Of a stretch of 18,246 nucleotides of DNA, positions 1 through 15,675 are shown one piece after another. This stretch comes from a virus (taxonomy: Duplodnaviria; Heunggongvirae; Uroviricota; Caudoviricetes). The notes beneath the pieces were generated by a model. That model worked only from the letters and a program-made list of their open reading frames with translations, did no database searches and was not told the DNA's origin. Every line of letters begins with the position of its first letter. Within the stretch, counting starts at the first letter, position 1. The stretch is from positions 1 through 18,246 of the IMG/VR virus record IMGVR_UViG_2609459834_000002, one strand, 5' to 3'. Both the position numbers and the translations under genes were made by a program.

Positions 1-286
1 TCACGGCACGTCGCCAGAACTCATAGGCCACGCACCACCGCTCAAGTACCGCCAGGTCAGTCACGCACAACAGGCCCTGACCGCAGAGTTCTTTGGTTGT
101 CAGTTGCCACATGATCGTGGCGAGAGGGAGATCTTCTTCAGCGAACCACTCCGGTGGCTCAACACCTTTGATGGGCGTAAAAACAGGTTCATCTTTGTTC
201 AGGGCTCGCTTGCCGGGGTTTCCGGCCAGCGCCTTGCGCGCCGTTGGCTTGGGGCGACGCCCGGAACGCCCCGCCGTTCCAGCCAT
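1..286 (-). CDS. Phage terminase small subunit (P27 family), N-terminal 95 codons; gene continues beyond the window start
   Basis: Minus-strand ATG at 286-284, open to position 1 with no stop. N-terminus MAGTAGRSGRRPKPTARKALAGNPGKRALNKDEP is the characteristic P27-family terS opening. Sits beside an HNH endonuclease, as in HK97-like packaging modules. Absent from the ORF track because it is truncated. Confidence 0.75.
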   Translation of the reverse strand, partial: MAGTAGRSGRRPKPTARKALAGNPGKRALNKDEPVFTPIKGVEPPEWFAEEDLPLATIMWQLTTKELCGQGLLCVTDLAVLERWCVAYEFWRRAV

Positions 287-411
287 ATGCGGCACTCCTG
301 GTTAAATTTCATTTTTCGCGGGTATAAAAAAACGATGGGGCGGGCAGTCCGGAAGACGTCAGGCCACAGGGATTTGCCCCGCCCCTCCCCTCAGGCAGTT
401 GAGAATTATTA

Positions 412-762
412 TCACTTTAGCCGTTCACGGGCCGTCTTCGTCTTATGGCACGACCAGCACAGGCTCTGCAGATTACTGTCTGCATCAGTGCCGCCATGCG
501 CTTTAGGAATGATGTGGTCAACGGTTTTCGCCTCACGCACCACACCAGCACGCAGACATAACTGACACAGGCCTTTGTCACGCTTCAATATGCGCACGCG
601 GATACTGTCCCACTTCGAACCGTAGCCGCGCTGATGACGGGATTGTCCAGGTTTGTATTGCTTCCAGCCTTCGCTTTTGTGGCTTTCACAATAGCCTGAC
701 GGATCTGTGGTGGTATGGCGGCAACCGCGAACACGGCAGGCTTTTGGGATTCGTGGCGGCAT
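412..762 (-). CDS. HNH endonuclease (terminase-associated)
   Basis: 116-aa ORF with Cys-rich N-terminus (CRVRGCRH...CESH) and HNH core motifs (DHIIPKAHGG...NLQSLCWSCH). Immediately upstream of terS, the established HK97-like arrangement. Confidence 0.85.
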   Translation of the reverse strand: MPPRIPKACRVRGCRHTTTDPSGYCESHKSEGWKQYKPGQSRHQRGYGSKWDSIRVRILKRDKGLCQLCLRAGVVREAKTVDHIIPKAHGGTDADSNLQSLCWSCHKTKTARERLK

Positions 763-1077
763 ATGTACTAATCTCCGATTTATCCAAATTTCACTGCCAT
801 AATGCCGACATTCTCTGCCATTATTGGCTCCGTTTATCCGTTAAAAGGGATATCAGTTAAGTTATCCCGTGCAGGGTATAAGCCATTGTCGAGACCACTC
901 ATTGAATGGCCTCTGCAATAACCGATGTCTTTCCATCAGTCCGCCACCACAAAGAATCTTTTTTGCCATAAGGCTGGAGGTTCATCTTTCAGTGGCTGCC
1001 AGTGTTATTTCCCCACTTACTGGCTTGGGTTGTTTCGCTGTACTGCCGTAATGCAAAAACTGGATTAACCTGCGAAA

Positions 1078-1608
1078 TCACACCATTCCGGGCAAATACA
1101 TTTGCACTTCATTTGCCGCTCTCTCACGTGCAACATGAAGCAATCTTTTTCGCCCACCAACGCCCCACTTAGCCATTTGGCTTGCGCACTGGCTTATCGC
1201 TTTGGTTTCAGTATTGATGATGTGATCGATTCTATTCAGACGGGACATTGCGCCAACGCCGAGACGGACAACCGTTTTGAAAACTTCATAAACTTCGATT
1301 TCAAATTCCGGCTTAATCCATGCTGCATATCTGATTGCCAGAAGTTCAACACCCCACACACCTGGTTCTGCACCACCTTTGATTATTTTAAGTGGCTGAA
1401 TTTGTTCCAAAGTGCTTTTTTGCACTTTGGCCTCCAGTGCTTTTATGAAGCGTTTTATCTGCGCGCTACGCAAAAACTGGCTTGGGCGCTGTTGCTCTGT
1501 AGCCTCTCCATTTGCAACTGCTGCTGCATGGAGATCGTTTAAGTTGTAGCGTCCATCCTCATCAACACGAACGGACACACCATTGACAATAACTGTTGGG
1601 TACTTCAT
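1078..1608 (-). CDS. KilA-N domain protein (moron between lysis cassette and packaging genes)
   Basis: ATG at 1608-1606 with AAGG RBS about 10 nt upstream. N-terminal VIVNGVSVRVDEDGRYNLNDLHAAAVANG matches the KilA-N signature and is paralogous to the N-terminus of the 5788-6597 product. Confidence 0.8.
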   Translation of the reverse strand: MKYPTVIVNGVSVRVDEDGRYNLNDLHAAAVANGEATEQQRPSQFLRSAQIKRFIKALEAKVQKSTLEQIQPLKIIKGGAEPGVWGVELLAIRYAAWIKPEFEIEVYEVFKTVVRLGVGAMSRLNRIDHIINTETKAISQCASQMAKWGVGGRKRLLHVARERAANEVQMYLPGMV

Positions 1609-1752
1609 CAGTAATTACCTTTTAGTGATGAACCTTGTCACACAGGATTCCGGCCCACAGAAAGGTACCGATCACCAAACCGGCATCCTCAAGGGTCATC
1701 CTGAAAGGTTCTGTGTTCATAAGTCGCGCGTGTGAAGCGCGTTTACTGCGGA

Positions 1753-1779
1753 CATAAAAAAGCCCCGCATCGCGAGGCT
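1753..1779 (-). terminator. Candidate rho-independent terminator after the lysis genes (minus strand)
   Basis: Imperfect 8-bp stem (1761-1768 agccccgc / 1772-1779 gcgaggct, one mismatch), 3-nt loop, followed on the minus strand by a U6 run (plus-strand A6 at 1755-1760). Lies about 30 nt downstream of the Rz stop. Confidence 0.45.
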
Positions 1780-1810
1780 CATTAAATGGACTTTGTGATT
1801 TGCAAAAAAA

Positions 1811-2272
1811 TTATTTCAGGCACTGAGCCCTGATGTACTCCTGCAGGTAGTTAACCTGCGCGGTTATCCTGTCTATTCCACTTCGGAGACGGTAATAATT
1901 GAGTTCAGCATCTGCTGTAAGTCTTGGGCTTTCTCCATCGCCCATGCTGCTGGCTCCGGTCGTTGACTTTGCACAGGTGGCGGAGACTTGCAGGCGCTTA
2001 CGACCAGCAGAAACATCAGCACGGAGACTTTCGATAGTGGCGTTAGCATCAGCAAGCTCCTTTGTATATCTGGCATCGAGTTCTGCTACGTCACGTTGAC
2101 GCTTCTGCATATCAGAGATCGTCGCCATAGCCGAATCTAATGCCATAGCGTTTTCATCGCGCTGTTTTTTGTATTCAATGGCTTTATTGTGGTAATGATT
2201 AGCTGACCAGACAAGACCACCAGCAATACAAGCAATAAACGTTAAAATGAGCGCCCAATAACTCGTCTTCAT
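1811..2272 (-). CDS. Rz-like i-spanin (inner-membrane spanin subunit)
   Basis: 153 aa with an N-terminal TM segment (YWALILTFIACIAGGLVW) and coiled-coil-like periplasmic domain. Start overlaps the endolysin stop (ATGA), and a +1-frame lipoprotein ORF is embedded, the hallmark of Rz/Rz1. Confidence 0.8.
   Translation of the reverse strand: MKTSYWALILTFIACIAGGLVWSANHYHNKAIEYKKQRDENAMALDSAMATISDMQKRQRDVAELDARYTKELADANATIESLRADVSAGRKRLQVSATCAKSTTGASSMGDGESPRLTADAELNYYRLRSGIDRITAQVNYLQEYIRAQCLK
1873..2049 (-). CDS. Rz1-like o-spanin (outer-membrane lipoprotein), embedded in Rz in the +1 frame
   Basis: ATG at 2049-2047 with GGAG RBS 8 nt upstream. About 20-aa signal peptide ending in lipobox VSAC, then a Pro-rich mature region (KSPPPVQSQRPEP). 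An alternative upstream ATG at 2076 is in frame. Confidence 0.7.
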   Translation of the reverse strand: MLTPLSKVSVLMFLLVVSACKSPPPVQSQRPEPAAWAMEKAQDLQQMLNSIITVSEVE

Positions 2273-2883
2273 ACCAGCAGCGCCGCCCGCGCCTTGTTGT
2301 ATCGAATCTTACGATCCTCAATACCGTTCAGACCGCCGTTAATGATGCGCGTAACACGATTAATATCGGCACCGTAGACCATGCAGCCTTTAGATGTGTA
2401 GAACCATGCAGCTGAGCGCGCGGCCTGTAGATCCTGCTCCAGTTGTTCAGGTGAAGTCACCAGATCTAACTTCAGCGCCGCGCCACAGATGCGATAATTA
2501 TGGAGGCCAGTGATTTGAATTAATCCTCTACCGCGATATTTCCAGCCATCACCGGGTGCTTTGTTACCCAGCCGGTTGCTATACACAAGATTGGCAATAG
2601 CATCCTGACGAGCTGCATGTCCGGATGTTCTGCCAAGGGCATCAGCCTGCTGCTGTGTGATCCTCTTTCCGAACGTCGCCACAAGCGCAGATGGTGTGTA
2701 GTTAAAATTTTCAACTACGGCGCTAAACCCCATCGACTCATGGCCTACCTGAGCAATAAACATTGCCTGATCCGCTGGTGCTGTAATGCCGAATTCCTTC
2801 ATCGCCGCATCAATGTGCGGAAACCAGCGCGCAGCCAGCCCGGCGCTAATACCAGCCGCCTTTTGAAATAATTGTTGGTTCAT
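2269..2883 (-). CDS. Endolysin, glycoside hydrolase family 19 (chitinase-like phage lysozyme)
   Basis: 204 aa with motifs typical of GH19 phage endolysins (FIAQVGHES, GRGLIQITG, YNKARAAL). Coupled to the upstream membrane-protein gene (TAATG overlap at 2883) and to Rz downstream (ATGA at 2269-2272). Confidence 0.85.
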   Translation of the reverse strand: MNQQLFQKAAGISAGLAARWFPHIDAAMKEFGITAPADQAMFIAQVGHESMGFSAVVENFNYTPSALVATFGKRITQQQADALGRTSGHAARQDAIANLVYSNRLGNKAPGDGWKYRGRGLIQITGLHNYRICGAALKLDLVTSPEQLEQDLQAARSAAWFYTSKGCMVYGADINRVTRIINGGLNGIEDRKIRYNKARAALLV

Positions 2884-3164
2884 TAGTGCCTCAGATGATC
2901 AACCAGACGTGCAACGTTGCCTCTTACGGCCACCAGCACGGAAAGAAAAATAGTGTTCGCCACGATAATGGGCCATGAGGAATGGGGATAAATCCCACAG
3001 AGATAGGCCAACGGAACAGCACTGTATGTAACAGTAATCAGCCAGGCTAAACGTGAAACCCAAGGACGATGCCGCGAATCACCACGACGATAAAACATCA
3101 GAGTAATAACAACACAAGCACATAACAGCGCATTTATAGTTGCTGTCGGGTCATTTAGCTCCAC
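2883..3164 (-). CDS. Small lysis-associated membrane protein (holin/antiholin-like, function unassigned)
   Basis: 93-codon ORF between holin and endolysin with two to three hydrophobic segments. The first codon is GTG at 3164, so the true start is uncertain. Overlaps the holin 3' end by 14 nt. Confidence 0.5.
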   Translation of the reverse strand: MELNDPTATINALLCACVVITLMFYRRGDSRHRPWVSRLAWLITVTYSAVPLAYLCGIYPHSSWPIIVANTIFLSVLVAVRGNVARLVDHLRH

Positions 3165-3537
3165 CTGAACCTCCCCGGCGCGTTATGAGCGCCACCAGCG
3201 AGCCGATATCCTGATTATTCAGGAACGTCAGGATTTTAACGGCTAAAGCAGAGACGATTACGGCACCAATAGCATCCAGAGGTTTATCACTGTATCCGGT
3301 CAAGTTCGCCAGCTTGGAGCCAACCAACCCAGAGCAAAGAATCCCGGCAATATATGACACGATAAAATATGCCAGTCGGCGCGATGCACTCAGATCTGCT
3401 GCTGTTGCTATGTAGAATACAGCCCCTGCAAATGCGCCAAATACAACGCCGTAATCAGTTCCGGTCAGCAGTCCATAAACACTGGCACCCGTCAGGGCAC
3501 CACCAGCCAGCCCAGTACCGGAAATCGGATCGGACAT
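3151..3537 (-). CDS. Putative holin (Gly-rich multi-TM membrane protein)
   Basis: ATG at 3537 with strong GAGGGGG RBS. 128 aa, glycine-zipper-rich hydrophobic segments, charged C-terminal tail. First gene of the lysis cassette downstream of the pR'/tR'-like unit. Confidence 0.65.
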   Translation of the reverse strand: MSDPISGTGLAGGALTGASVYGLLTGTDYGVVFGAFAGAVFYIATAADLSASRRLAYFIVSYIAGILCSGLVGSKLANLTGYSDKPLDAIGAVIVSALAVKILTFLNNQDIGSLVALITRRGGSGGAK

Positions 3538-3616
3538 TTAGCCCCCTCTTAATTGCTGTTGGTCCTCTCAGATATGAGGGGAAGGGATCTTAATGACAGT
3601 CTGTTTATTATTTCAG

Positions 3617-3874
3617 TCAAATACTACCCTGTTGATGATTTCTCAGAAGCGAACTTGACTCCCAAGGGAAACTCAACTTTCCGTTAAAACCACCAGCAGA
3701 CATTCGTTCAATTTCCACAGAAATATCACTGAGCCGTTCTTCAAGCTCTGCTTTTTCTTTTACCAGACGGTTATAGCGGCTTAGATGAAGCTTTTGCTGC
3801 TCCAGCCAGTCTTCAAGCTGTTCAACAGTCATACCAGGGTTAAAAAAATATGGCTGCTGCTTTTCGCCCTGCAT
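3617..3874 (-). CDS. Hypothetical small protein (85 aa), first ORF of the late transcript
   Basis: Track ORF 3617-3943 trimmed to the ATG at 3874-3872, which has GGAGG 6 nt upstream. The longer version would include the terminator hairpin. Predicted helical, acidic; no family recognised. Confidence 0.5.
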   Translation of the reverse strand: MQGEKQQPYFFNPGMTVEQLEDWLEQQKLHLSRYNRLVKEKAELEERLSDISVEIERMSAGGFNGKLSFPWESSSLLRNHQQGSI

Positions 3875-3892
3875 TATTGACCTCCAGAAAAG

Positions 3893-3914
3893 CAAAAACC
3901 CCGCCGAAGCGAGG
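3893..3914 (-). terminator. tR'-like rho-independent terminator downstream of Q (minus strand)
   Basis: Minus-strand RNA CCUCGC-UUCG-GCGGGG (6-bp stem including one G-U pair, UUCG tetraloop) followed by U5. Lies about 50-60 nt downstream of the candidate late promoter, as for lambda pR'/tR'. Confidence 0.5.
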
Positions 3915-3964
3915 TTTGTTATGATTTCGTTAACGGCAGACATACAAAGCCCATCGTTAGGAGA

Positions 3965-3993
3965 ATCCTAACCAGATTTTTTGAAAAATGCAA
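3965..3993 (-). promoter_or_regulatory. Candidate late promoter (pR'-like) with presumed qut region
   Basis: Minus strand: -35 TTGCAT (plus 3988-3993), 17-nt spacer, -10 TAGGAT (plus 3965-3970), directly downstream of the Q stop at 4025. Hexamers are only moderate matches; the position is what supports the call. Confidence 0.3.
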
Positions 3994-4024
3994 GAATCAT
4001 GTCGCTATCTTCGGCGAAAATCAT

Positions 4025-4777
4025 TTATCTCGTCACTTTTCTTAATTGCGCCTCAGCATATGCTTCTTCCTGCCAGCACTTTGTCACCAGTTTATCAATG
4101 ACATCTGCATATCCTTTGTACCACTGATAATCCGTCAGGTCTGGTACCAGCTTCTGGACATGATGCCGCGCCAGTGTGGTTGGTAAACGGCTAAACCGGT
4201 TTCCATTGCAACGCCCACAAATCTTATAAACAGGCATGCCATGAAGCCGGGTTCTTTTTTCATCCAGGACAATACCTTTGCCCTTACACCCTCTGCACGC
4301 TGTGCTGACTTCTCCCTTACCATGACAATGCTGACATAGTTCCTTCACCCACTCTTCCTTGATAACAGATTCCCCGTTTCTGGAGTGTTTCACCACTTCG
4401 CGCAATACATTATGAAATCCCGTACCTGCACAATGCTCACAGCGAGCCTTACTTGCCGCAGATCTGGAATAATCAGCAAAGGCAAAATTCACAAGGTAAG
4501 GAATGATCTGTAGCCGGGTTTCTTCACTCAATTTATTCAATGTCGGGTTATCCAGTGCCATCGCGTAATTGAGCAGACCTTCAATCGCAAACTGAGGATC
4601 CTGAACACCAACTTTTGCCAGGAATAAGGCAAACCCAAGCGGTGCTTTCGACTGCACCATCCCCTGCGCAGCCATCACATCCGTAATCGTTAAACCACCT
4701 GAGCCTGTCGCCGGTGCGTCATCGCTCAATTTTGGAGATTTTGGGGAGTAATATTTTGGTAAGGCTTCAAGGTTCAT
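4025..4777 (-). CDS. Late-gene antitermination protein Q (phage 21/82-like Q family)
   Basis: ATG at 4777 with GGAG RBS 8 nt upstream, after trimming a 14-codon in-frame extension. Contains CxxC...CxxC zinc-binding-like motifs (CEHCAGTG, CQHCHGKG, CRGCKGKG, CGRCNG) and sits immediately upstream of the late promoter and lysis cassette. Confidence 0.85.
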   Translation of the reverse strand: MNLEALPKYYSPKSPKLSDDAPATGSGGLTITDVMAAQGMVQSKAPLGFALFLAKVGVQDPQFAIEGLLNYAMALDNPTLNKLSEETRLQIIPYLVNFAFADYSRSAASKARCEHCAGTGFHNVLREVVKHSRNGESVIKEEWVKELCQHCHGKGEVSTACRGCKGKGIVLDEKRTRLHGMPVYKICGRCNGNRFSRLPTTLARHHVQKLVPDLTDYQWYKGYADVIDKLVTKCWQEEAYAEAQLRKVTR

Positions 4778-4790
4778 GCTCGTTCTCCAC

Positions 4791-5786
4791 TTACGCCAGT
4801 ACGCCAATTGCCAGCGCACGATCGATAAAACGAAATATCAGCTCCAGCTGGGAGCCATACTTCTCTTCAAATGCCACGGTATCCGCATGCAGCTCGTCGT
4901 GATGCTTTCTGCACAAAGGCAACACAAAGAGGTCATGCGCTTTTGTTCCCATTCCACCCTGACCGTGACCTATCAGGTGGTGGGGATCATCAGCAGGCTT
5001 ACCACAACATGCACACGGCTGTGTCTTAACCCAGCGCGTGTACTTTTCATTAACCCAGCGGCGACGTTTTGGGCGTAACATAAAAGACTCCGGCGACTCC
5101 GGATCCACTTTCAGCGCCAGCACCTTTTTCGCTTTATCCTGGATAATGCTGGTGGCAGGAACCGAAGGCACAAGGTCACTCTCCCGGGTGACAGACGGCA
5201 CAACAGGCTTCGGTAATCTCAGTGCCTTACGGGCTGCACTTTCCGGTAAGGCATCCGCCAGATCATTACGAACCAGCCACCAACACAGTTCCGGCATTGT
5301 CACAACGTGACTGTCATCAAAACCGAGATCCCGACGCACAACAGACAACACCCAGCGGGCACAGTTATCCGTTGCCATTGATTCCAGCCGTTCCGTGAAC
5401 TGATCGCGCAGCTGGTTATCGCAGTGCCAGCACAGACGGATTGCGCCCGGAGCGTGTCGCATTGTGGTCATGTTCTCGCTGTGCCAGTCGGAATGAGGCC
5501 ACTGGCAGCCTTTTTCACGAAGTAACCAGCTTTCAAGACATTCCACGCCACCAGCACGACGGATCACTGCCTCATTGCGGAACACGGCCCGAACGGCAGG
5601 ATCATCCGCCAGCGGTTGTGATGCCGCCGGAACGGCACCACTGGCGAAAGATGAATAACGTTCCGGCTCAGGCTCCAGCAGAACACGCCCCTGCATAAAC
5701 AGGGGCATCAGCTCTGAACCTGGCCTGAACAATACGATCCCCATACGCGGGGCAATTTCAGGGGTCAGTAGTGCTCTCACGGTCAC
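4791..5786 (-). CDS. DUF968-family protein (YdfU-like) with HNH-like C-terminal motif
   Basis: 331-codon ORF. C-terminus has CACCGKPADDPHHLIGHGQGGMGTKAHD...CRKHHDELH. Recalled as resembling the E. coli Qin-prophage gene upstream of its Q. The first codon at 5786 is GTG directly after the KilA-N stop, so the start is uncertain. Confidence 0.75.
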   Translation of the reverse strand: MTVRALLTPEIAPRMGIVLFRPGSELMPLFMQGRVLLEPEPERYSSFASGAVPAASQPLADDPAVRAVFRNEAVIRRAGGVECLESWLLREKGCQWPHSDWHSENMTTMRHAPGAIRLCWHCDNQLRDQFTERLESMATDNCARWVLSVVRRDLGFDDSHVVTMPELCWWLVRNDLADALPESAARKALRLPKPVVPSVTRESDLVPSVPATSIIQDKAKKVLALKVDPESPESFMLRPKRRRWVNEKYTRWVKTQPCACCGKPADDPHHLIGHGQGGMGTKAHDLFVLPLCRKHHDELHADTVAFEEKYGSQLELIFRFIDRALAIGVLA

Positions 5787-5787
5787 C

Positions 5788-6597
5788 TCAATGAACGGTA
5801 TCGAGCAGCTTTAACAGCTCAGGGAATCGGGATTCGAAGAAATGCGGCTGCGTCTCGCGCGGATTTGCAGGACTGGTGATGTTCTTGCCGAACATGCAGC
5901 CTTTCGCTGTCAGCGACCAGAATTTTTTGATGTTGTTAATCGCAGTGCGGCTGTATCGTTCACGTTGTTCAACGATCCCCAGCTTCGCCATCTGGTGATA
6001 TGCCTGATTAGCTGTCAGGCGGATACCATACTGCTTCAGCAGTGCACTCAATGATAGCGTGGGGCGGCTTGAGCCATCAGGCGCGTCAGCAGGAGCATCA
6101 ATGGCATAGCGTGGTGCCAGATTCGGTAAGCCAACAGCCTCCTGGAGTTTCTGACAGGCACCAAGCACAGATGAGTTAGACAGGTTTAATTCCCGACGCA
6201 TAAAGTCCAGCAGAATCACACCAGCCTGCATCTTGTCAGCAGCCTGCCCGGATAATTTTTCCGGTGCGCTGGTTACCATATCGAAAGTACGGATCACCTT
6301 CAGATGGAATGACGGGCTGATCCACATTGCATAGGCATACACCAGTTCCTTGCAGACATACGTTCCCCGTTCATTTCCCCCATGAATCACACTCACCGGG
6401 TCAACACCCAAATTCTGGGTGTTGGTCAATTCATGAACAAGCTCAACAGTTTGTTGGCTGGAAAGAAACTTTCCCGGCTCCTTGGTTCTGGCATTTGCAC
6501 CAGATGCTACTGCTGCGCGATGCAGATCGTTCAGGCTGTAACGCCCATAAGCATCACGACGAACTTCAATACCATCAATGACCATCAGATTATTCAT
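5788..6597 (-). CDS. KilA-N domain protein (antirepressor-like), second paralogue
   Basis: ATG at 6597 overlapping the RusA stop. N-terminal MVIDGIEVRRDAYGRYSLNDLHRAAVASG is a KilA-N signature; the 170-aa C-terminal domain is unassigned. Confidence 0.8.
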   Translation of the reverse strand: MNNLMVIDGIEVRRDAYGRYSLNDLHRAAVASGANARTKEPGKFLSSQQTVELVHELTNTQNLGVDPVSVIHGGNERGTYVCKELVYAYAMWISPSFHLKVIRTFDMVTSAPEKLSGQAADKMQAGVILLDFMRRELNLSNSSVLGACQKLQEAVGLPNLAPRYAIDAPADAPDGSSRPTLSLSALLKQYGIRLTANQAYHQMAKLGIVEQRERYSRTAINNIKKFWSLTAKGCMFGKNITSPANPRETQPHFFESRFPELLKLLDTVH

Positions 6598-7006
6598 ACT
6601 TCGTTTCTCCTCTTAATCGGGCGGCTGCCCCCGCCGTTTTCTCGTACTTACTGATAGTGATCTCGACCTTCCCTTCCGGGATAACCGGTCCCCACTCCAC
6701 CAGCATTCTTTTCACCTGACTGTCGTCTTCCCACACACCCGCGTGGGTCAGGGCGTCAAACAGCGCCTTGTTATAGTTGTCCAGATCGCGGATCCGGTTA
6801 TCCGGAGGAAACAACACGATCTCCACTGAAGCAGGTGCCGACGTTGGTTTCGGCAGACGACGTAACTGCTCAACTATTGCTGCGCACGCCGCGCTCTGAA
6901 ATTTTCGCCCCGCCGCGCTTATCAGGCTCTTACCAGCAAATGCCCCTTTATTGGGGTGTCGCCAGTACGTGTTCACGCTGGGCGGGAAAGGCAGGATCAG
7001 CTTCAT
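6590..7006 (-). CDS. rusA: Crossover junction endodeoxyribonuclease RusA (Holliday junction resolvase)
   Basis: 138 aa; N-terminal MKLILPFPPSVNTYW and RDLDNYNKALFDAL are RusA signatures. ATGA-coupled to the upstream gene. Confidence 0.9.
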   Translation of the reverse strand: MKLILPFPPSVNTYWRHPNKGAFAGKSLISAAGRKFQSAACAAIVEQLRRLPKPTSAPASVEIVLFPPDNRIRDLDNYNKALFDALTHAGVWEDDSQVKRMLVEWGPVIPEGKVEITISKYEKTAGAAARLRGETKYE

Positions 7007-7329
7007 ACTTTCAGGCCCCTCTCATGTAACCAGTGGGTTGCACGCAGCCTGGCGTTTTCCTCACCGGCAAGCAGTGAGCGGATAATCCCGACCGCCTCGC
7101 TGTCGTCGTCCTTCACCGCGGTATGAAGAGTGATACCCCGGGCCACGCCACGCTTTATCGTGATGACGCCTTTTTTCTCCAGTGCGCGAAGATGTTCCAC
7201 CGCTGCATTCACTGAACGGTATCCCAGCATGGTTGCCACCTCCTGATTGGTTGGCGGGAAGCCACGTTCTTTCTGGTAAGAAATCAGCATATCCAGCACC
7301 TGCTGCTGGCATTGAGTTAACGTCGTCAT
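7003..7329 (-). CDS. LexA-type N-terminal DNA-binding domain protein (no peptidase domain)
   Basis: 108 aa; LTQCQQQVLDMLISYQKERGFPPTNQEVATMLGYRSVNAAVEHLRALEKKGVI resembles the LexA winged-HTH. No S24 protease motifs. ATGA-coupled on both sides. Confidence 0.6.
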   Translation of the reverse strand: MTTLTQCQQQVLDMLISYQKERGFPPTNQEVATMLGYRSVNAAVEHLRALEKKGVITIKRGVARGITLHTAVKDDDSEAVGIIRSLLAGEENARLRATHWLHERGLKV

Positions 7330-7979
7330 GCCGCCATCTCCCTGACCAGTTTTTCCGCCTGCTGGCGAACCTGCGCCAGAAACGCCTCACCACATGCCTC
7401 AAGTTCATCACGCCCGATGTAGCTGATTGCCGGTCCCTTCCAGGTCTTGTCGAAAACAGCAATAGCACCAGCGAAGAAAGCGCCTGTCGGCACCTGCTTC
7501 TCGTCCTTCGGTATAAACCAGGCAGGCAGTTCAAAACCAATACGCCCGCGAATAAAAGCAATATGATCTGCATCTTCCGGCCACCACACTTCGCTGGTGG
7601 CCGCTTTGATCAGGAAAACATAGCGCCCGCCCTTATCACGCATGGCACTGGCATGTTTCATGATGTAACGCATGCCGGTGATGTATTGCCCCTCATGCTG
7701 ACTGGCGCGGCTGTATGGGGGATTACCAAAGGCAGCACCTTTAAGCTCCGCAAGACGTTCTGACCAGTCATGCGCCAGCGCGTTATCTTCCGCCGTGTAA
7801 TACGCGGCACATTTGGCGTTATCACCGTCAGTAAACAGATCCAGAACAAACGGGCCAAACAAGGTGTTAATTCCCCAGAAAATGTTATCCGGCGTGCGCC
7901 ACTGATCGCCCACTTCCTTCAGTTCATGGGCTGGTTTGTTCCGCAGTTCCACCAGCGCCTGGCAATATTTATTACTCAT
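7326..7979 (-). CDS. Phage DNA N-6-adenine methyltransferase (Dam family)
   Basis: Start assigned to ATG at 7979-7977 (MSNKYCQ...), which overlaps the upstream TAA as TAATG. Contains the catalytic NPPY motif (FGNPPYS). The track start at 8012 is an in-frame upstream extension. Confidence 0.85.
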   Translation of the reverse strand: MSNKYCQALVELRNKPAHELKEVGDQWRTPDNIFWGINTLFGPFVLDLFTDGDNAKCAAYYTAEDNALAHDWSERLAELKGAAFGNPPYSRASQHEGQYITGMRYIMKHASAMRDKGGRYVFLIKAATSEVWWPEDADHIAFIRGRIGFELPAWFIPKDEKQVPTGAFFAGAIAVFDKTWKGPAISYIGRDELEACGEAFLAQVRQQAEKLVREMAA

Positions 7980-8467
7980 TAAGCCCCCACGTAATTCCCT
8001 GAGAGATACCACTCTTCACCCGATGCAGCGCGCTTGCTGCTTTTCCGTAAGCACCGCTCACGACGCGCCAGAAAATTGTTTCGTTCTGGCTGGGAGTGGC
8101 TTTCACGGAATGCCGCCATCCACACGGTTGCAGCACGACGGTATAAGCCCCTTGACTCCAGTTCTTCAGCCTGGCGGGTCAGGCACAAAATCACCCGGGG
8201 GTCGTTAGTGCCGACATAGAACTTGCGCACAGGTCTGGTTTCACGAACTGGTTGTGGTTCCGGCTCCTGCGCTCTCTCAGTCAGGCGCGGGAAATGTCTG
8301 CGTGTATCCCCTTCACAACGGTGAGCCACACGCCCACTCTGACGTAACTTGCTTGCTGACTGCAGAACGCGCTGCCGTGAGTAACCAGCAAAAGCATCCG
8401 CAATGTCTCCGGAAGTACACCCCGGATGGGCTTCAATGAATTTCTGAACTTCATTCAAAAGACTCAT
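7979..8467 (-). CDS. Hypothetical regulator, PerC/ANR-like (tentative)
   Basis: Start at ATG 8467-8465 (the track begins at GTG 8473). C-terminal LESRGLYRRAATVWMAAF...RRERCLRK resembles PerC/ANR-family proteins as recalled; N-terminus looks like a small HTH. Assignment from memory only. Confidence 0.45.
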   Translation of the reverse strand: MSLLNEVQKFIEAHPGCTSGDIADAFAGYSRQRVLQSASKLRQSGRVAHRCEGDTRRHFPRLTERAQEPEPQPVRETRPVRKFYVGTNDPRVILCLTRQAEELESRGLYRRAATVWMAAFRESHSQPERNNFLARRERCLRKSSKRAASGEEWYLSGNYVGA

Positions 8468-8469
8468 GA

Positions 8470-9288
8470 TCACCCCCTGAATCCTGCCGGGATCTGGCTG
8501 TAGTCCACGTTGTCGTAACTGGCTTTGAAGTACGGGTCCTCGCGTCTGGCTGCAGATACCGCAGGAACTTCCCAGGATTCTTCGAAATGACGATCCGGAC
8601 CAAAGAACGTGACAGCCTGTTTCACAAATTGTGTGCCGCTGTTACCCATCGCAGATACCCAGCCCGCGTAGCGTTTCACACCTTCCAGCATGGTTTCGGG
8701 GTTTACTCCCTCATTCAAACGGGCTTTCCAGGCTTTGAAGGCTGCAGATTTTGAATTGCCACCAGCACGTTTGGGATATGCCAGCCATGCCTGCTCAAAC
8801 TCCGGAGAGTATTCCGGTCGGTTTGAACGAACTCGCACGGACTCATCAACTGATGCACCAACAGCTATTGGTTCATTGACTGGTTCTTTGACTGGTTCAA
8901 AAGAGTGACTGGTTCTGGGTGAATCTCCTGCACTACCCCCTGGTGCAACTCCTGCACTACCTGGTGAATTTGCTGCACCAGATAGTGAATTATTTGCACT
9001 ACCCCCTAGTGAATCTCCTGCACCATCCAGATGAAGGAGATAGATATTACTTGAGTTACCTTTTTCACCTTTCCGGGTGACTTTTTTTACCAGCCCGGAC
9101 TCACAAAGGGCCGCAATATGATTCATCACAGAACGTTTGCTAATCTCGCACTGGTCAGCAATATGCTGATAGCTGGGCCAGCACTCACCCTGATCGCTGG
9201 CATTATCAGCCAGCTTGATCAGAACCAGTTTTCGCAATGGATTACCCACTCGAATTTTCATCGCTTTAACCATCAGCTCCATACTCAT
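8470..9288 (-). CDS. Phage replication initiation protein (N-terminal HTH domain, repeat linker, C-terminal domain)
   Basis: 272 aa. N-terminal HTH (PLRKLVLIKLADNASDQGECWPSYQHIADQCEISKRSVMNHIAALCESGLV), a Gly/Ser/Ala-rich linker encoded by tandem DNA repeats, and a basic C-terminal domain. Sits at the lambda O position after the cro/CII-like genes. Confidence 0.7.
   Translation of the reverse strand: MSMELMVKAMKIRVGNPLRKLVLIKLADNASDQGECWPSYQHIADQCEISKRSVMNHIAALCESGLVKKVTRKGEKGNSSNIYLLHLDGAGDSLGGSANNSLSGAANSPGSAGVAPGGSAGDSPRTSHSFEPVKEPVNEPIAVGASVDESVRVRSNRPEYSPEFEQAWLAYPKRAGGNSKSAAFKAWKARLNEGVNPETMLEGVKRYAGWVSAMGNSGTQFVKQAVTFFGPDRHFEESWEVPAVSAARREDPYFKASYDNVDYSQIPAGFRG
8877..9028. repeat. Iteron-like tandem repeat array inside the replication gene (candidate phage origin)
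   Basis: Five tandem 21-24-bp repeats at 8917-8940, 8941-8961, 8962-8982, 8983-9006 and 9007-9028, consensus tGGTGAATctcCTGCACTACCccc. Three copies of TGACTGGTTC at 8877, 8889 and 8907. A moderately AT-rich stretch follows at 9029-9090. Confidence 0.5.
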
Positions 9289-9509
9289 GCTGCACCTCCG
9301 AGATGCTTCATGTTTTTTCCGGAGCGAAAGGCTATAAGCGGCATACTGACGCGGTAATTACGGCCCAGCGGTTCACAAACCACCTTCTGACATTCACGGT
9401 CAACCAGGCTAACACGTAGAACATGCCCTGCAGGCGTGGTGTACCACTGACCGGGGCGAGGACAACGGAAAGTCTGATTGGTAAATCGTTTGAAAATATT
9501 CCGGATCAT
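9285..9509 (-). CDS. Hypothetical protein (74 aa), translationally coupled between Rha-like and replication genes
   Basis: ATG at 9509 overlaps the Rha stop (ATGA) and its stop overlaps the replication-gene ATG at 9288 (ATGA). No recognised domain. Confidence 0.5.
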   Translation of the reverse strand: MIRNIFKRFTNQTFRCPRPGQWYTTPAGHVLRVSLVDRECQKVVCEPLGRNYRVSMPLIAFRSGKNMKHLGGAA

Positions 9510-10063
9510 TTGCGCCCCCTTACCTCTGAAGAGTTCAGCGACGAATGAATAAGACGGGCAAGAAATGCCGCATCGTTAATTCGGTCATACAGACTTACAG
9601 CCAGAGGTGATTCAGCTTTTTCCAGCATGGGATAAAGCTGCTGCAACCAGACCTGATGAATTGATGAAATGTAGGAATAGAGAACGCTGGCGTTATGTGC
9701 AACGTCGCTCGGTACAGAGGGCTTTGAAAGCTGTTTCTCCATCTGGTTAAAGGCATTGATGTATGCCTCTTTGAACTGGGCAGCACGTTTCCCCGTGAAA
9801 CCCATAGCAAGAAACGCAAAGCCGTCGCGGGTTATTTGATAGCAAGGAAGTTTGCGAGTACCGCCGTTGGGCTGGCGTACCAAAATTGATGTCTCCGCAA
9901 AATTGCGGGCACAAAACTCTGGAGAACAATCCAAAATGCGGATCTTTTTCAGAACATCGTCATGACGTTTAGAGAAGAAGTCAGCAACAGCCAAAGAAGA
10001 TGTAACAGCCTGACCATCAACGATGGCAATTTCAGGTTGAGAGAGGGTTGGGAGAGTAGTCAT
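9506..10063 (-). CDS. Phage regulatory protein, Rha family
   Basis: Product from the internal ATG at 10063-10061 (MTTLPTLSQPEIAIVDGQAVTSSLAVADFFSKRHDDVLKKIRIL...YQITRDGFAFLAMGFTGKRAAQFKEAYINAF) matches the Rha N-terminal domain. The track ORF extends in frame to 10669; that extension is treated separately in findings. Confidence 0.75.
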   Translation of the reverse strand: MTTLPTLSQPEIAIVDGQAVTSSLAVADFFSKRHDDVLKKIRILDCSPEFCARNFAETSILVRQPNGGTRKLPCYQITRDGFAFLAMGFTGKRAAQFKEAYINAFNQMEKQLSKPSVPSDVAHNASVLYSYISSIHQVWLQQLYPMLEKAESPLAVSLYDRINDAAFLARLIHSSLNSSEVRGRK

Positions 10064-10665
10064 GGTGACAGCCCCGGTAGTCAGTTTTTTAGAAAACTCA
10101 CCACATGGGACGCCAATCACAGAGGTGGTGAGACGTACAGGGTTGGCGTTACCGGAGACTACCGAACCCGGCCCGACCGAAGTCGGCCCTGTACGCCCCA
10201 CCATAATTTGGGCGTAGCAATGCTCATGACACGAAAAAACCGCATGAGCGCGGTTATGCTCAGTAATCAATTTCAGGACGCCAATCCCGGCACCCGTTTT
10301 ATAAGGTGCCTGAACAGTGTAACGTCCCGGAATGGCAGAATCAATGTGCTGGTGGTCCTTCACACTCAACAAAATCACGCCTGAATTTCCACAAAGGACT
10401 AAAGCACTCATGCGGGTAGTCTTTGCGAAGATAGATAACGCGCTGTGTTTCTGGCTCCCAACGAATAACATGAACATAAAGTCCTCTTCCGTCACGAAAC
10501 CAGCGGTTAAGTTCCTGCACAACTCGCCCCCCACAGTCAGGTAAAGTTCTCTGTGGTTACTTACAGCCAGGTGATTTGGTAATCTGCATTCATGCCGTAA
10601 CAACAGGTGTTCAGCGACGCTGACCACCTGTTGTTGCGACAAACGGTTATTTGCCGTTAAACTGT

Positions 10666-11229
10666 TCATGCGTTAGTTTCTCCACAGACACAAAACGCCA
10701 CGACGCCCGGAGCTGCACACTCGCGGGCGTCACTCTTTTCTGGAGCGCAAAAGATTTTGTAGACCAGTGCTGCATGCTCCTGGAGCTTCGAAATTGACAG
10801 ATACAACTCATCATTAATTGCTGTCTGCTCGTGTGGCTCCACTACCCCATCTTCGATTGCCGAACGAATCTGCTTTGAGTAACTCCCGATCTGTTCGATG
10901 ACTTCCAGCAGGCGCTGGTTTATATCGGCGTTCTCTACTTCCTCAATTTCAGGAAGCGATACAAACACCCCACCAGCAGACTGTGCGACAGCATCCGCAA
11001 TGTAGTGAGTGCCAGCCGCGCGCTGTAAAATCATTGCCCATCCCAGCGGGAAAATCTGATCGCCATCTGCACGAAGGCGGTTGAATAAAGCGTTCTCTGT
11101 TACATCCAGCCACTCAGCAGCTTCAGCGTAACCCCCCGGCAACGCCGCGATAGTTTTTCTGACAGCTTTCACGTACCACTCAGGCTGTTTTTCTACTTTC
11201 CAGTGATGCTTACCCACGGTTAGCCTCAT
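10666..11229 (-). CDS. CII-like / YdaT-like regulatory protein (tentative)
   Basis: 187-codon ORF immediately downstream of the cro-like gene on the same strand, the CII position. No strong RBS at ATG 11229; an in-frame GTG at 11217 has GAGG upstream. Family assignment is by position and weak recollection. Confidence 0.45.
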   Translation of the reverse strand: MRLTVGKHHWKVEKQPEWYVKAVRKTIAALPGGYAEAAEWLDVTENALFNRLRADGDQIFPLGWAMILQRAAGTHYIADAVAQSAGGVFVSLPEIEEVENADINQRLLEVIEQIGSYSKQIRSAIEDGVVEPHEQTAINDELYLSISKLQEHAALVYKIFCAPEKSDARECAAPGVVAFCVCGETNA

Positions 11230-11260
11230 CGTTCTGTGGTTAAAAATTGAAGGTGTTCTG

Positions 11261-11461
11261 TTAATCTTTCGGATAGATATCCGGTCTTAAGTCAGATTTC
11301 GTAATTGCACCTGACGTGCATTGCTCAAGTTTTTTAGCCAGCACAAAACTGGCTTTTTTATAACCATTGAAAACCAGCCGTAAGTAGCCTGGTGTTGAGC
11401 CAACTTTTCCGGCCAACTCGCCCTGCTGTTCTTTGGTTAAAGAGTCCCAATACGCTTTCAT
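11261..11461 (-). CDS. Cro-like HTH regulator (YdaS-like)
   Basis: ATG at 11461-11459 with GGAGG RBS about 10 nt upstream. The 66-aa product MKAYWDSLTKEQQGELAGKVGSTPGYLRLVFNGYKKAS...LRPDIYP is divergent from the repressor gene. The 167-aa track ORF is an upstream extension running through the operator region. Confidence 0.7.
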   Translation of the reverse strand: MKAYWDSLTKEQQGELAGKVGSTPGYLRLVFNGYKKASFVLAKKLEQCTSGAITKSDLRPDIYPKD

Positions 11462-11464
11462 ACA

Positions 11465-11536
11465 ATATGTACCTCCGATATACATATTACATGATTGAGA
11501 TGAACCTTCAAGATACTTGTACCCTATCGGTACAAA
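11465..11536. promoter_or_regulatory. Immunity operator/promoter region (OR-like; pR leftward, pRM-like rightward)
   Basis: Two operator-like inverted repeats: 11465-11487 ATATGTA-N9-TACATAT and 11518-11536 TTGTACC-N5-GGTACAA. Candidate pR on minus: -35 TTGAAG (plus 11504-11509) and -10 TAATAT (plus 11482-11487). The cI-like ATG at 11552 has no convincing RBS, suggesting a leaderless or weakly initiated mRNA. Confidence 0.5.
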
Positions 11537-11551
11537 GGTTTTAATTTCGTT

Positions 11552-12226
11552 ATGAAAACAGTCCATGACATCCGGCGGTCTAACGCCAGAAAACTGAGAG
11601 ATGGTGTTGGCGGGAATTCTTCCTTTGCCACCATGATTGATCGCGAGCCAACCCAGACCAGCAGGTTTATGGGGGATGGTGCTACTAAAAATATCGGTGA
11701 CAGCATGGCACGGCACATCGAAAAATGTTTCGACCTGCCTGTCGGATGGCTTGATCAAGAACACCAGACAACAAACATCACAAAAAAACCTGATGTTTCA
11801 ATCACTAACAAACAAATAACGTTAGTCCCTGTCATATCATGGGTACAGGCCGGAGCATGGAAAGAAGTTGGCTATTCTGAGGTTGATTTGAGCACAGCAG
11901 AAACTTATCCCTGCCCTGTACCCTGTGGCGAAATGACTTATATCTTGCGGGTGATTGGTGATTCAATGATTGATGAGTACCGCCCGGGAGACATGATTTT
12001 TGTTGATCCCGAAGTCCCTGCCTGCCACGGTGACGACGTTATTGCATTGATGCACGATACAGGCGAAACCACCTTTAAGCGGTTGATAGAAGATGGAACA
12101 CAGCGTTATCTCAAAGCATTAAACCCAAACTGGCCTGAACCTTACATTAAGATCAACGGTAATTGCTCTATAATTGGCACAGTGATTTTCTCAGGAAAAC
12201 CAAGAAGATACAAAATAAAGGCCTAA
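11552..12226 (+). CDS. CI-like prophage repressor (HTH plus LexA-like S24 peptidase domain)
   Basis: 224 aa. C-terminal domain has the S24 autocleavage-fold motifs (VIGDSMIDEYRPGDMIFVDPE). Divergent from the cro-like gene and followed by a strong terminator. Confidence 0.85.
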   Translation: MKTVHDIRRSNARKLRDGVGGNSSFATMIDREPTQTSRFMGDGATKNIGDSMARHIEKCFDLPVGWLDQEHQTTNITKKPDVSITNKQITLVPVISWVQAGAWKEVGYSEVDLSTAETYPCPVPCGEMTYILRVIGDSMIDEYRPGDMIFVDPEVPACHGDDVIALMHDTGETTFKRLIEDGTQRYLKALNPNWPEPYIKINGNCSIIGTVIFSGKPRRYKIKA

Positions 12227-12239
12227 TCAATATTTATAA

Positions 12240-12260
12240 CCTGCTTCGGCAGGTTTTTTT
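12240..12260 (+). terminator. Rho-independent terminator after the repressor gene
   Basis: CCTGC-TTCG-GCAGG hairpin followed by T7 (12254-12260), 14 nt after the cI-like stop. Confidence 0.7.
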
Positions 12261-12264
12261 ATAC

Positions 12265-12297
12265 TTGACAATGTACCCTCGAGATACATAATGTATC
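12265..12297 (+). promoter_or_regulatory. pL-like promoter with overlapping operator (OL-like)
   Basis: -35 TTGACA at 12265-12270, 17-nt spacer, -10 ATAATG at 12288-12293. The spacer holds a 19-bp operator-like site ATGTACC-N5-GATACAT (12271-12289), overlapped by the perfect palindrome GATACAT-A-ATGTATC (12283-12297). Confidence 0.5.
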
Positions 12298-12575
12298 TAA
12301 AAGAAACATGTCACAGGCAAGATTAAACAAAATTTGGTTGTAACACGGCGTATGGCACATGCGTCGTTAGCGGTCTGGGGACGTTAAAGGGGACAATCCA
12401 CTCCTTGCTCGGGCAAACAAACCAGGTAGCCGGAATGTGCAAGTCAATGATGATGCTGATAAGACGCCTAACCAGCGTGGCGGTTCGGTTTGACACCTGG
12501 GAAGAGACCAGGGTGCAACGATGAGGGCATTTATGGAACCGCGACAAAGTGTGGTGCCGTAACTGGCTAAGTGCT

Positions 12576-12596
12576 CTCAGCGTTGTGGTGAATGCG
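12576..12596 (+). repeat. 21-bp direct repeat, copy 1 (CTCAGCGTTGTGGTGAATGCG), followed by a GC hairpin
   Basis: Differs from the copy at 13204-13224 by one base. Followed by hairpin GCGCA-GGCTGA-TGCGC at 12594-12609. Lies in the roughly 450-nt leader between the pL-like promoter and the first small ORF. Confidence 0.6.
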
Positions 12597-12739
12597 CAGG
12601 CTGATGCGCGAAAGACATTGCAGCTATTGCGGAAAAGAGCTGTTCGGCGGGGCAATTAAACGCCCGTATCTGGAGGTTAAAGAACAAAATGAAAGTCCAG
12701 ATTTTAAACAATAACTGTGAAGTCGTTTGGGCGTAAAAC

Positions 12740-12946
12740 ATGACCGCGCGTAGACCAAGGGAGGAAAAAGTGGGAATAGTTAGAAATCAAGCAGATATAT
12801 TGAAAATCAGCTCTGAATTGCTTGGAGTTTTGAAAAGTGAGCTCACCGCACATGGCATCGAGCCCACTGACGAAAATTTAAGTTGGGTTTTGTCGATTAT
12901 TCAACAATCACTCAAGCCCAGCCTCAGCAAACTTTTTATCGAGTAG
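12740..12946 (+). CDS. Hypothetical small protein (68 aa) at the N-gene position; possible N-like factor or moron product
   Basis: ATG at 12740 lies 3 nt after the stop of a 15-codon upstream ORF (12689-12736, MKVQILNNNCEVVWA, GGAGG at 12672-12676). An in-frame GTG at 12770 has a strong GGGAGG RBS. N-terminus MTARRPREEK is mildly Arg-rich. Sits in a visibly AT-rich island. Confidence 0.4.
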   Translation: MTARRPREEKVGIVRNQADILKISSELLGVLKSELTAHGIEPTDENLSWVLSIIQQSLKPSLSKLFIE

Positions 12947-13099
12947 TGCTTCGAACTTATCGTAAAGCTTGCTTATGTCGTCTATCGGGTTTTCTGACGT
13001 ACTGTAATTTTTATCTGATGTCATGGCAGCAGTCTGATATGCAGTGTGAGTCTTAACCGATAGTTGGAATAAATAAAGAATTTTTTCTTCTTTGGTCAT
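12908..13099 (-). CDS. Hypothetical small protein (63 aa), convergent with and overlapping the 12740-12946 ORF
   Basis: ATG at 13099-13097 with AAGGA RBS 7 nt upstream. Product MTKEEKILYLFQLSVKTHTAYQ...DKKFAEAGLE. Its 3' end overlaps the convergent ORF by 39 nt. No family recognised. Confidence 0.4.
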   Translation of the reverse strand: MTKEEKILYLFQLSVKTHTAYQTAAMTSDKNYSTSENPIDDISKLYDKFEALLDKKFAEAGLE

Positions 13100-13203
13100 G
13101 ACTATTTCCTTCTTGGCTATATGAAAACACCAAGATACCACCGAGCCTGAAGTGGTGAAAAGACAGGCACATAACAGCTAAGTATTTTCAACCAGAGAGA
13201 ATC

Positions 13204-13224
13204 CTTAGCGTTGTGGTGAATGCG
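13204..13224 (+). repeat. 21-bp direct repeat, copy 2 (CTTAGCGTTGTGGTGAATGCG), followed by a short GC hairpin
   Basis: Near-identical to 12576-12596 (20 of 21). Followed by TGCG-GCTCAG-CGCA at 13221-13234. Marks the right boundary of the AT-rich island. Confidence 0.6.
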
Positions 13225-13355
13225 GCTCAGCGCACGCGGGTTAAGGTTGAGGCTGACAGTCGACCTTCTGTGGATACCCACCCGCCTGGTGTGCAACCTT
13301 CGCCAGGCACCGGGAGGCACCCGGCACCACAACTTTATGCTGTGTGTAGTCCTAG

Positions 13356-13400
13356 CGGTACCAGCTTGTACCATTGCTTCCGGCTGGTACCGTCCTTTTT
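13356..13400 (+). terminator. Terminator-like hairpin (tL1-like candidate) upstream of rdgC
   Basis: Perfect 10-bp inverted repeat CGGTACCAGC (13356-13365) / GCTGGTACCG (13383-13392) with a 17-nt loop, followed by TCCTTTTT (13393-13400). The loop is long for a canonical intrinsic terminator. Confidence 0.4.
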
Positions 13401-13565
13401 ACAAAACAGAGAAGAGCATCACCGGACGACGGGCTCATAACCCAATCCACCCGGGCAAAAAGAAAGCGGTCTCTGCAAGCCGCCGACCAATGCAGGTGCC
13501 CTTCTCTGTTGTGTATGGAGAAACTAACTTTTTAGCGCCGGTGCAGAGGCGTTGAGGAACCGAGA

Positions 13566-15196: not shown

Positions 15197-15197
15197 G

Positions 15198-15672: not shown

Positions 15673-15675
15673 CTC

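Follow-up and report, generated by a model that had tools for sequence, protein, structure and literature searches.

The stretch of DNA considered here, 18,246 nucleotides (nt) from a Caudoviricetes virus (IMG/VR record IMGVR_UViG_2609459834_000002, positions 1 to 18,246; hereafter the window), carries at one end an HNH endonuclease gene, an intergenic gap and the first 95 codons of the gene for the small terminase subunit (terS, protein TerS), which the annotation of this window end places on one strand only (minus) in the order HNH, gap, terS. The gap and its probable role as the cohesive-end (cos) site are the subject of this account. The initial annotation had marked it as a candidate cos region on account of a GC-rich inverted repeat preceded by an A-run, and had given its length as 124 base pairs (bp), which is corrected here to 125 nt. 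The arms and the A-run read on the plus strand as it described them, with GGGGCGGGCAG at 337–347, TGCCCCGCCCC at 375–385 and AAAAAAA at 326–332. Positions are also given in cos coordinates, where the overhang spans -10 to -1 and +n corresponds to window position 337-n; a slash within a sequence marks a nick or a record break. The features are collected in Table 1.

Table 1. Features of the HNH–terS junction, and the Q gene, in the window
Feature	Window position	Cos coordinates	Strand	Remarks
HNH endonuclease gene	762-412		minus	116 amino acids
HNH–terS gap	411-287			125 nt
G-box GGGGAGGGGCGGGG	377-390	-54 to -41	minus	contains second arm (375-385, plus strand)
CAAATC motif	371-376	-40 to -35	minus	directly after G-box
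Variable spacer, fixed length	351-370			includes GACGTC palindrome, not conserved
GGAC	347-350		minus	directly 5' of overhang
Cohesive end TGCCCGCCCC, 10 nt, predicted 3' overhang	337-346	-10 to -1	minus	equals first arm
Candidate TerS recognition block (cosB-like), TTTTTTT ATACCCGCG AAAAA TGAAATTTAA	302-332	+5 to +35	minus
Shine-Dalgarno AGGAG of terS	295-299		minus
terS, 5' part (P27 family, Terminase_4)	286-1, ATG 286-284		minus	runs off window
Q	4025-4819

The HNH protein matches the Pfam HNH domain (E 6.7e-17), and its translation shows a Cys-rich, zinc-ribbon-like N-terminus (C9x4C14 and C25xxH28) followed by the core residues C66xxC69, H83, N97, C102xxC105 and H106. All zinc-ribbon motifs, the [CxxC]2 arrangement and the H-N-H residues of the group-1 HNH nicking endonucleases are therefore present, as judged by the published motif list that defines these enzymes (PMC3592412), and the domain layout of CxxxxC/CxxH plus [CxxC]2 HNH is shared with N.phiGamma, N.phiE2 and N.phi105. 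Sequence identity is 37% with HK97 gp74 (E 7e-12), which is without the N-terminal zinc-ribbon part, and 34% with phage Gamma gp53, the enzyme N.phiGamma (E 9e-15). The top Protein Data Bank match is the HNH protein of Geobacillus virus E2 (5h0m), covering the full length (E 2e-12).

The TerS encoded beside it carries the RefSeq name "phage terminase small subunit P27 family" and belongs to Terminase_4, with a Pfam E-value of 9.2e-5 on the fragment in the window and 2.3e-21 on the full-length orthologue of phage SfV. BLASTP returned no similarity between this TerS and HK97 gp1, which lies outside Terminase_4, and no solved structure matched the P27-family TerS by sequence. The large terminase subunit (TerL) of the prophage would be encoded beyond the window edge. 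That of SfV, a phage nearly identical to the window in cos region and terS, is 26% identical to HK97 gp2 over 520 amino acids (E 4e-31) and has the same Pfam domains, TerL_ATPase and TerL_nuclease. Homology of the HNH protein to gp74 and of the SfV TerL to gp2 thus bears out the earlier description of the locus as an HK97-like module, as does the shared gene order HNH, cos, terS, terL; the TerS proteins of the two systems differ, being unrelated in sequence.

Mapped and deposited genome ends of related phages assign the gap its function. The virion DNA termini of phage SfI were sequenced by run-off and compared with the prophage, which left a 10-nt gap, 5'-TGCCCGCCCC-3' (PMC3636060), and the minus strand of the window at 346–337 is identical to this cohesive end. 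The SfI record ends at window 337. The record of the Stx2e phage phiP27 (AJ298298) annotates a 10-nt "cos-site", CGCCCGCCCC, which differs by one base and lies in the same register between HNH and terS. In fact SfI, SfII, SfIV, SfV and phiP27 all have cos in this position, between the HNH gene and a P27-family terS, and megablast against phage records found several Shigella phage genomes linearised within the gap. More distant records agree in register, that of HK97 ending in ...TGAC CGCCGCCAAA and that of phiE125 in ...GGGAC CGCCCGCTTC; the window, reading GGAC/TGCCCGCCCC/ATCGTTTTTTT, fits the conserved order of GAC, 10 nt and a T-rich stretch. The comparison with cos sites of related phages that the initial annotation recommended therefore upholds its placement of a cos region between HNH and terS. 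Likeness to the Sf phages and phiP27 extends to the G-box, the spacer length and the downstream block, and SfII is 99% identical to the window region over 411 nt. What separates the window from the Sf and P27 sites, a G in place of T at -41 (GGGGCAAATC in the window, GGGTCAAATC in the others) and a few spacer changes, is nothing material.

From the SfI data we infer that ends of this type carry a 3' overhang, because a gap, rather than an overlap, between run-off reads is expected only when the template 5' ends are recessed. This polarity agrees with the 10-nt 3' overhangs reported for HK97 (PMC9410871). The HNH–terS gap is accordingly read as the cos site of a lambdoid SfV/SfI/P27-like prophage with an HK97-type machine of TerS, TerL and an HNH accessory nuclease, with a probability of about 0.8. 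By analogy with the SfI and HK97 virion data, this prophage would have fixed ends with 10-nt 3' extensions. SfI, SfV and P27 had already made this site known, and for the window itself the finding is ordinary annotation.

Three points count against this identification: the mapped ends come from the virion DNA of relatives rather than of this prophage; the prophage could be defective, since the window does not reach its TerL, portal and head genes; and in GenBank the SfV and SfIV records have their break at window 353/354, upstream of the predicted plus-strand nick by 7 nt. Were those two record ends the true ones, the genome would be cut at ...GACGTCT/TCCGGAC..., as two deposited phage records have it. 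This is exceedingly improbable, as the SfI paper calls the SfV cos "postulated" (PMC3636060), the SfIV record was linearised by analogy, and the break falls within the variable spacer, out of register with HK97, phiE125, P27, SfI and Gamma. A relic, unused because the prophage is defective or packages by headful, is a very improbable reading too. Although the window holds only the first 95 terS codons and leaves TerL, portal and head genes unseen, the three cos elements are undamaged and match those of the plaque-forming phage SfII at 99% identity, the nearby late genes (Q, holins, lysin, Rz and HNH) are intact, and the module is retained in 1177 of 5426 complete Escherichia coli genomes, where the top matches to the window region are 98.5% identical.

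The records themselves are inconsistent on the position of cos, with near-identical phages linearised at three different points in the gap. SfII (KC736978.1), which starts at 411, and three IMG/VR contigs (L038, L041 and L042) break right after the HNH stop codon at 411/412, SfV (U82619.2) and SfIV (KC814930.1) at the point given above, 7 nt upstream of the 5' edge of the overhang, and only SfI at the mapped end.

Comparison with lambda was also part of the initial annotation, and the likeness is compositional only. The composition is indeed similar, with a G/C-rich cohesive end and a CGCCGCC core in many family members, and the site shares the tripartite logic of lambda, in which an upstream termination element and a nicking site are followed by downstream TerS sites in the terS leader. 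Sequence, overhang type and TerS family all differ. Lambda has a 12-nt 5' overhang, a Nu1/gpA terminase, a dependence on integration host factor and no HNH protein, whereas the TerS of the window is Terminase_4 (P27 family) rather than Nu1. The lambda cosN sequence GGGCGGCGACCT is absent from the gap, its only match in the window with at most 2 mismatches (15314–15325) being at chance level. A lambda-type cos was rejected on the two grounds that the site has no cosN 12-mer and that the small terminase is not of Nu1 type.

To place the site in its wider family, HNH–terS junctions were assembled from 80 close IMG/VR relatives, from annotated phages and from 80 loci in bacterial genomes (one genome per species) that were found through an HNH alignment. 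A first scan of viral contigs gave only relatives of at least 93% identity and was used for fine-scale variation alone. An nhmmer profile was seeded with seven sequences, counted as five phages with mapped or deposited ends (HK97, SfI, P27, phiE125, and Kp4886-1/Kp4879-1 as relatives) plus the window, and on iteration aligned 50 loci, 36 of them non-redundant, from several phyla. Phage Gamma, with its 1-nt difference in the spacer, was missed by the profile and its site was read by eye; mycobacteriophage ShowerHandel was left out, as its ends do not show the architecture clearly. Judged from these alignments, three parts recur at HNH-linked loci, namely a G-box with CAAATC, the nick site and the downstream block.

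The G-box occurs once in the window, which contains only three G4 runs. In the 36 non-redundant loci it takes the form GGG(A/G)(G/A)GGG(C/G)GGG at -53 to -42, with its G positions 86–100% conserved, and is followed by (T/G)(C/A)AAAT(C/G), in which AAA at -39 to -37 is 91–100% conserved. An alignment-free count of G-boxes (at least 10 G in 13 nt) found 53 in the 75.5 kb that follow HNH genes and 5 in the 102 kb that precede them, an enrichment of about 14-fold that is strand-specific, as C-boxes are without such bias. HK97, phiE125, Gamma and Geobacillus E2 share the box. For Bacillus phage Gamma and Geobacillus virus E2 the layout can be made out by eye, and prophages of Lachnospiraceae, Anaerolineales, Sedimentisphaerales and others have the same one. 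G-box and CAAATC together (390–371) stand at a fixed 24 nt before the nick region, and CAAATC ends 34 nt ahead of the top-strand nick in HK97 (where a G-run plus TCAAATC precedes it), P27, SfI, the window, Kp4886-1 and Kp4879-1. Among 33 close variants no stretch varies more than the spacer in between, which has a low information content in the family alignment but is conserved in length to within 1 nt. These features, the fixed distance, the strand specificity and the linkage to the HNH/TerL side, suggest that the G-box is a cosQ-like upstream termination signal.

At the nick site G-13 is conserved in 85% of loci and A-12, C-11 and G-9 in 33 of 33 each, with C (27) or T (6) at -10, and a C-rich overhang follows an invariant edge, GAC/YG. 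The predicted 10-nt 3' overhang of the window is preceded by GAC, as is that of HK97. Further downstream, T at +7 to +9 is 92–100% conserved.

Departures from this layout were seen in two groups. At 1440–1491 of phi105 (L35561.1), the box before TTAAATCCCT is C-rich (CCCCCCACCC), that is, an inverted G-box, with the AAATC motif and the terminal GAGAC still in the usual orientation. Prophages of Christensenellaceae and other Clostridia (L155, L160, L162, L165, L166, L169 and L173) have (A/C)AGAG/CGGGGCCGCAG or ACAG/CGGGGCC instead of GAC/CG, about 40 nt after their G-boxes. Their GAG^CG resembles the nick specificity reported for the HNH enzyme of Lactobacillus phage Sal2 (GAG^CA), and nick site and HNH enzyme could be co-varying in these loci. 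Beyond these phages, the herpesvirus pac1/pac2 signals contain a T-rich element flanked by G-rich runs, with CGCGGCG near the T-rich region and cleavage at a fixed distance (PMC13595911); the likeness to the layout of G-box, CGCCGCC and T-tract is superficial and may be coincidence.

Given a 3' overhang on the minus strand, the top nick falls between -1 and +1 (window 337/336) and the bottom, plus-strand nick between -11 and -10 (346/347), where the sequence reads 5'-GGGGCGGGCA/GTCC-3'. In most family members this bottom-strand site is CG/GT. Ten phage HNH enzymes of the zinc-ribbon family have been purified and their nicks mapped (Xu & Gupta 2013, PMC3592412); N.phiGamma and N.phiE2 cut CG/GT (AC^CG), N.phi105 cuts YG/GTY (RAC^CR) and the others cut close variants. 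The measured AC^CG thus equals the conserved overhang boundary, with the window reading AC/TG and its own enzyme specificity being a prediction only. That study did not relate the nick site to cos, and suggested supercoiling relief or homing instead (PMC3592412). Three observations on phage genomes fit these specificities. The record of Gamma breaks at ...GTCCGTAC/CGCCGCCCCC... (GTAC/CGCC), the measured site of its own enzyme, at the expected distance from a G-box; Geobacillus virus E2, whose enzyme has the same specificity as that of Gamma, has GGGAC/CGGC at the expected distance from its G-box; and the right-end fragment and record of phi105 stop at ...GGAGAC.

The invariant AC/YG at the overhang edge favours the HNH protein as the bottom-strand nickase. 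For HK97, gp74 is needed for efficient cos cleavage (PMC9410871, PMC11331095). Of the two options that Chechik et al. give (PMC11331095), one is "one strand by TerL, the other by gp74", and a 2026 study describes cooperative nicking as "suggested" (PMC12967558). Confidence in this assignment is set only a little above even because gp74-type enzymes look non-specific alone, the window site is AC/TG, and the conservation could reflect TerL.

Packaging at the window site would then proceed as follows. TerS bound downstream would arrest and position TerL, the HNH protein would nick the plus strand of the window at CA/GT (346/347), and TerL would nick the minus strand 10 nt away (337/336). The staggered nicks in GGAC/TGCCCGCCCC/A would leave the 10-nt 3' overhang TGCCCGCCCC at the right, HNH-side end of the genome, and the HNH/TerL side of the machine may read the G-box as an upstream element of the cosQ kind.

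Extended to the family, the proposal is of an ancient shared HNH-cos architecture spanning Proteobacteria, Bacillota, Chloroflexota and other phyla, in which a G-box about 30 bp upstream of an invariant AC/CG would position or arrest the HNH–TerL complex at termination in the manner of cosQ, the HNH protein would nick the bottom strand at AC/CG and TerL the top strand 9–10 nt downstream. As a joint claim this is tentative, its odds being somewhat below even. Several observations weigh on the other side of the packaging scheme given for the window. HK97 gp74 is reported to be non-specific alone (PMC3592412), and phage sk1 HrdP and staphylococcal HNH proteins are reported to be so as well (PMC12967558, PMC3592412); sequence-specific nicking in the clade of the window HNH is therefore only predicted. 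The window itself has AC/TG and not the preferred AC/CG. The family alignment, being profile-guided, leans to its own consensus, several distant Clostridia loci with GAG/CG or other variants were left unaligned, and the function given to the G-box is entirely inferred.

The same cos site could also be cut on both strands by TerL, with GAC/YG and the G-box as recognition features of TerL (or TerS) and the HNH protein stimulating TerL allosterically or through metal handling, making no defined cut of its own. Such an arrangement would suit the finding that gp74 merely enhances HK97 cos cleavage in vitro (PMC13595911), on top of its lack of specificity alone (PMC3592412) and that of sk1 HrdP (PMC12967558). 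Chechik et al. give the same weight to a scheme in which "TerL cuts, translocates, then cuts again" (PMC11331095), and TerL is conserved along with the upstream block. It is harder to reconcile with the 5' boundary of the overhang, which coincides exactly with the specificity measured for the three homologous nickases of Gamma, E2 and phi105, or with the metal-binding His of gp74, which is essential for the gp74 effect (PMC13595911). Cleavage by TerL alone is accordingly regarded as doubtful, with odds well short of even.

On the other side of the nick, the sequence from +5 to +35 falls into groups that match the N-terminal types of the TerS encoded after it. A TTTTTATACCCGCGAAAAATGAAATTTAACC block accompanies the MAGTAGRSGRR... 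TerS (the window, the Sf phages and Kp4886-1), a CCTTTTTTCACATCGCCGCAGGTTAGAAAAC-T7 block the M(S/P/A)GPPKTP... TerS, and a ATTTTTAC(A/G)CCCGCGAAATTAAAAA block the P27 and phiE125 type; the downstream block of the Kp4879-1 type is CACATCGCCGCAGGTTAGAAAAC. Ungapped identity between Kp4886-1 and Kp4879-1 is 84% upstream, 90% in the overhang and 38% downstream, while the window compared with Kp4886-1 gives 58%, 50% and 93%, respectively. Owing to this break at the nick, overhang and G-box are taken to move together with the HNH side, and the block downstream with TerS.

In HK97, TerS binds +15 to +29, contacting the G in CCCG, and needs an adjacent A-tract (PMC11331095). The window has a T-tract from +5, T7 at 326–332 on the minus strand, which is the A-run of the plus strand, and after it ATACCCGCG-A5 at +12 to +25. 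By its position, composition and co-variation, and not by protein homology, 332–302, made up of T-tract, CCCGCG and A-tract in the leader of terS, is likely the TerS docking site. Weighing against this last reading, the analogy with HK97 is positional only, as the TerS has no similarity to HK97 gp1. Homology of the two TerS sites was rejected at the protein level, leaving the analogy of position and composition.

The inverted repeat that first drew attention to the gap contains a perfect 8-nt core, GGGGCGGG at 337–344 and CCCGCCCC at 378–385, with 33 nt between the arms, and reaches 10 pairs if a one-base bulge is allowed. By itself it does not exceed what chance gives: of 2000 dinucleotide-shuffled versions of the gap, 164 (8.2%) contained a perfect inverted repeat of 8 nt or more within 60 nt, and among 145 non-overlapping stretches of 125 nt taken from the same sequence, 12 hold one as long or longer. 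What does stand above chance is the separate conservation of each arm in relatives. The first arm (337–347) is the overhang plus one base and the second (375–385) the 3' half of the G-box. The longest complementarity between G-box and nick region averaged 5.13 in own pairs and 5.05 in swapped pairs (permutation p = 0.31). As own pairs match no better than swapped ones, the repeat is a by-product of two separately conserved cos elements, a C-rich overhang opposite a G-rich box, and it appears whenever the overhang facing the box reads YGCCCGCCCC.

The inverted symmetry put forward in the initial annotation would have gained a function of its own if it formed a symmetric dimer site for nuclease or terminase, or a cruciform (compare the partial two-fold symmetry of lambda cosN). 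The whole SfV/P27 clade does keep the 8-bp perfect repeat (10 bp with the bulge). The reading is nonetheless quite improbable, for besides the missing covariation, HK97 and phiE125, both with defined ends, show only 3 nt of complementarity between G-box and overhang and thus do without the repeat, close variants whose overhang changes from CCCC to CCTC have an unchanged G-box, the arms lie about 40 bp apart and off-centre to the nicks, and the DNA folding energy equals that of shuffles (z = +0.04).

Read as minus-strand RNA, the same segment offers a GC-rich hairpin and a U-run, the sense-strand stem GGGGCGGG(G)CA...UGCCCGCCCC being followed 4 nt further on by U7, and might be taken for an intrinsic terminator or regulatory RNA between HNH and terS. 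A terminator was defined as a GC-rich stem with a 3–8 nt loop and a U-run 0–2 nt from the stem, whereas this stem encloses a loop of about 29 nt and stands 4 nt away from the U-run. A scan of window 1–1200 found no intrinsic terminator, an Rfam scan gave no family match in the gap, and the RNA folding energy again equals that of shuffles (z = -0.11). The T-tract is conserved in relatives that have no such complementarity, and lambdoid late genes are transcribed by read-through from a Q-dependent promoter, with Q present in the window. A transcriptional role is therefore as improbable as the SfV and SfIV record ends are as true termini.

Elsewhere the window holds a typical lambdoid early and late region, with a cI-like repressor, a CII-like protein, Rha/Ash, replication genes, Dam, RusA, Q, holins, a GH19 lysin and Rz. 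A direct repeat with 21-nt spacing, TTCACTGCCATAAT and TTCTCTGCCATTAT at 790–803 and 811–824, lies shortly before the start codon of the HNH gene (762). Further upstream, in the intergenic region between a KilA-N open reading frame and the HNH gene, a weak Rfam match to the small RNA Proteo-phage-1 lies at 994–1065 (minus; 23 bits against a gathering score of 42, E 0.14). The prophage has two KilA-N domain reading frames, one between Rz and HNH (1078–1608, minus) and the other between RusA and a DUF968 protein (5788–6597, minus). The DUF968 protein (4791–5786, minus), just upstream of Q and overlapping its start, has a weak HNHc_6 match and is a possible second HNH-like nuclease. Adjoining the Dam methylase, 7003–7329 (minus) encodes a 108-amino-acid protein with a LexA DNA-binding domain only, and the early-left region contains a full-length RdgC homologue (13566–14483, plus; Pfam E 2e-113).

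The identification of the site would fix the genome ends of a prophage type found in about one fifth of complete E. coli genomes, and shows annotators where to linearise SfV-like records. Its comparative value lies in the three-part site found beside packaging HNH genes in distant bacteria, with the 5' edge of the overhang equal to the nick site measured for homologous HNH enzymes. This family-wide architecture of G-box, AC/CG and TerS block, together with the match to HNH specificity, is worth specialist attention and is more interesting than the site itself; no statement of either was found in the literature consulted, which did not cover Kala et al. (2014), Juhala et al. (2000) and Allison et al. 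(2002). The predicted TerS-specificity segment is relevant to hijacking by satellites (phage-inducible chromosomal islands, PICI, and Staphylococcus aureus pathogenicity islands, SaPI) and to the design of cos-based packaging vectors. Papers of 2024 and 2026 leave open which nuclease nicks which strand and why an extra nuclease is needed, and the anatomy described here turns the assignment of the nucleases into a simple strand-specific nicking test. If the joint proposal of a shared architecture with HNH and TerL each nicking one strand is true, it would assign each of the two cuts in HK97-type packaging to its nuclease.

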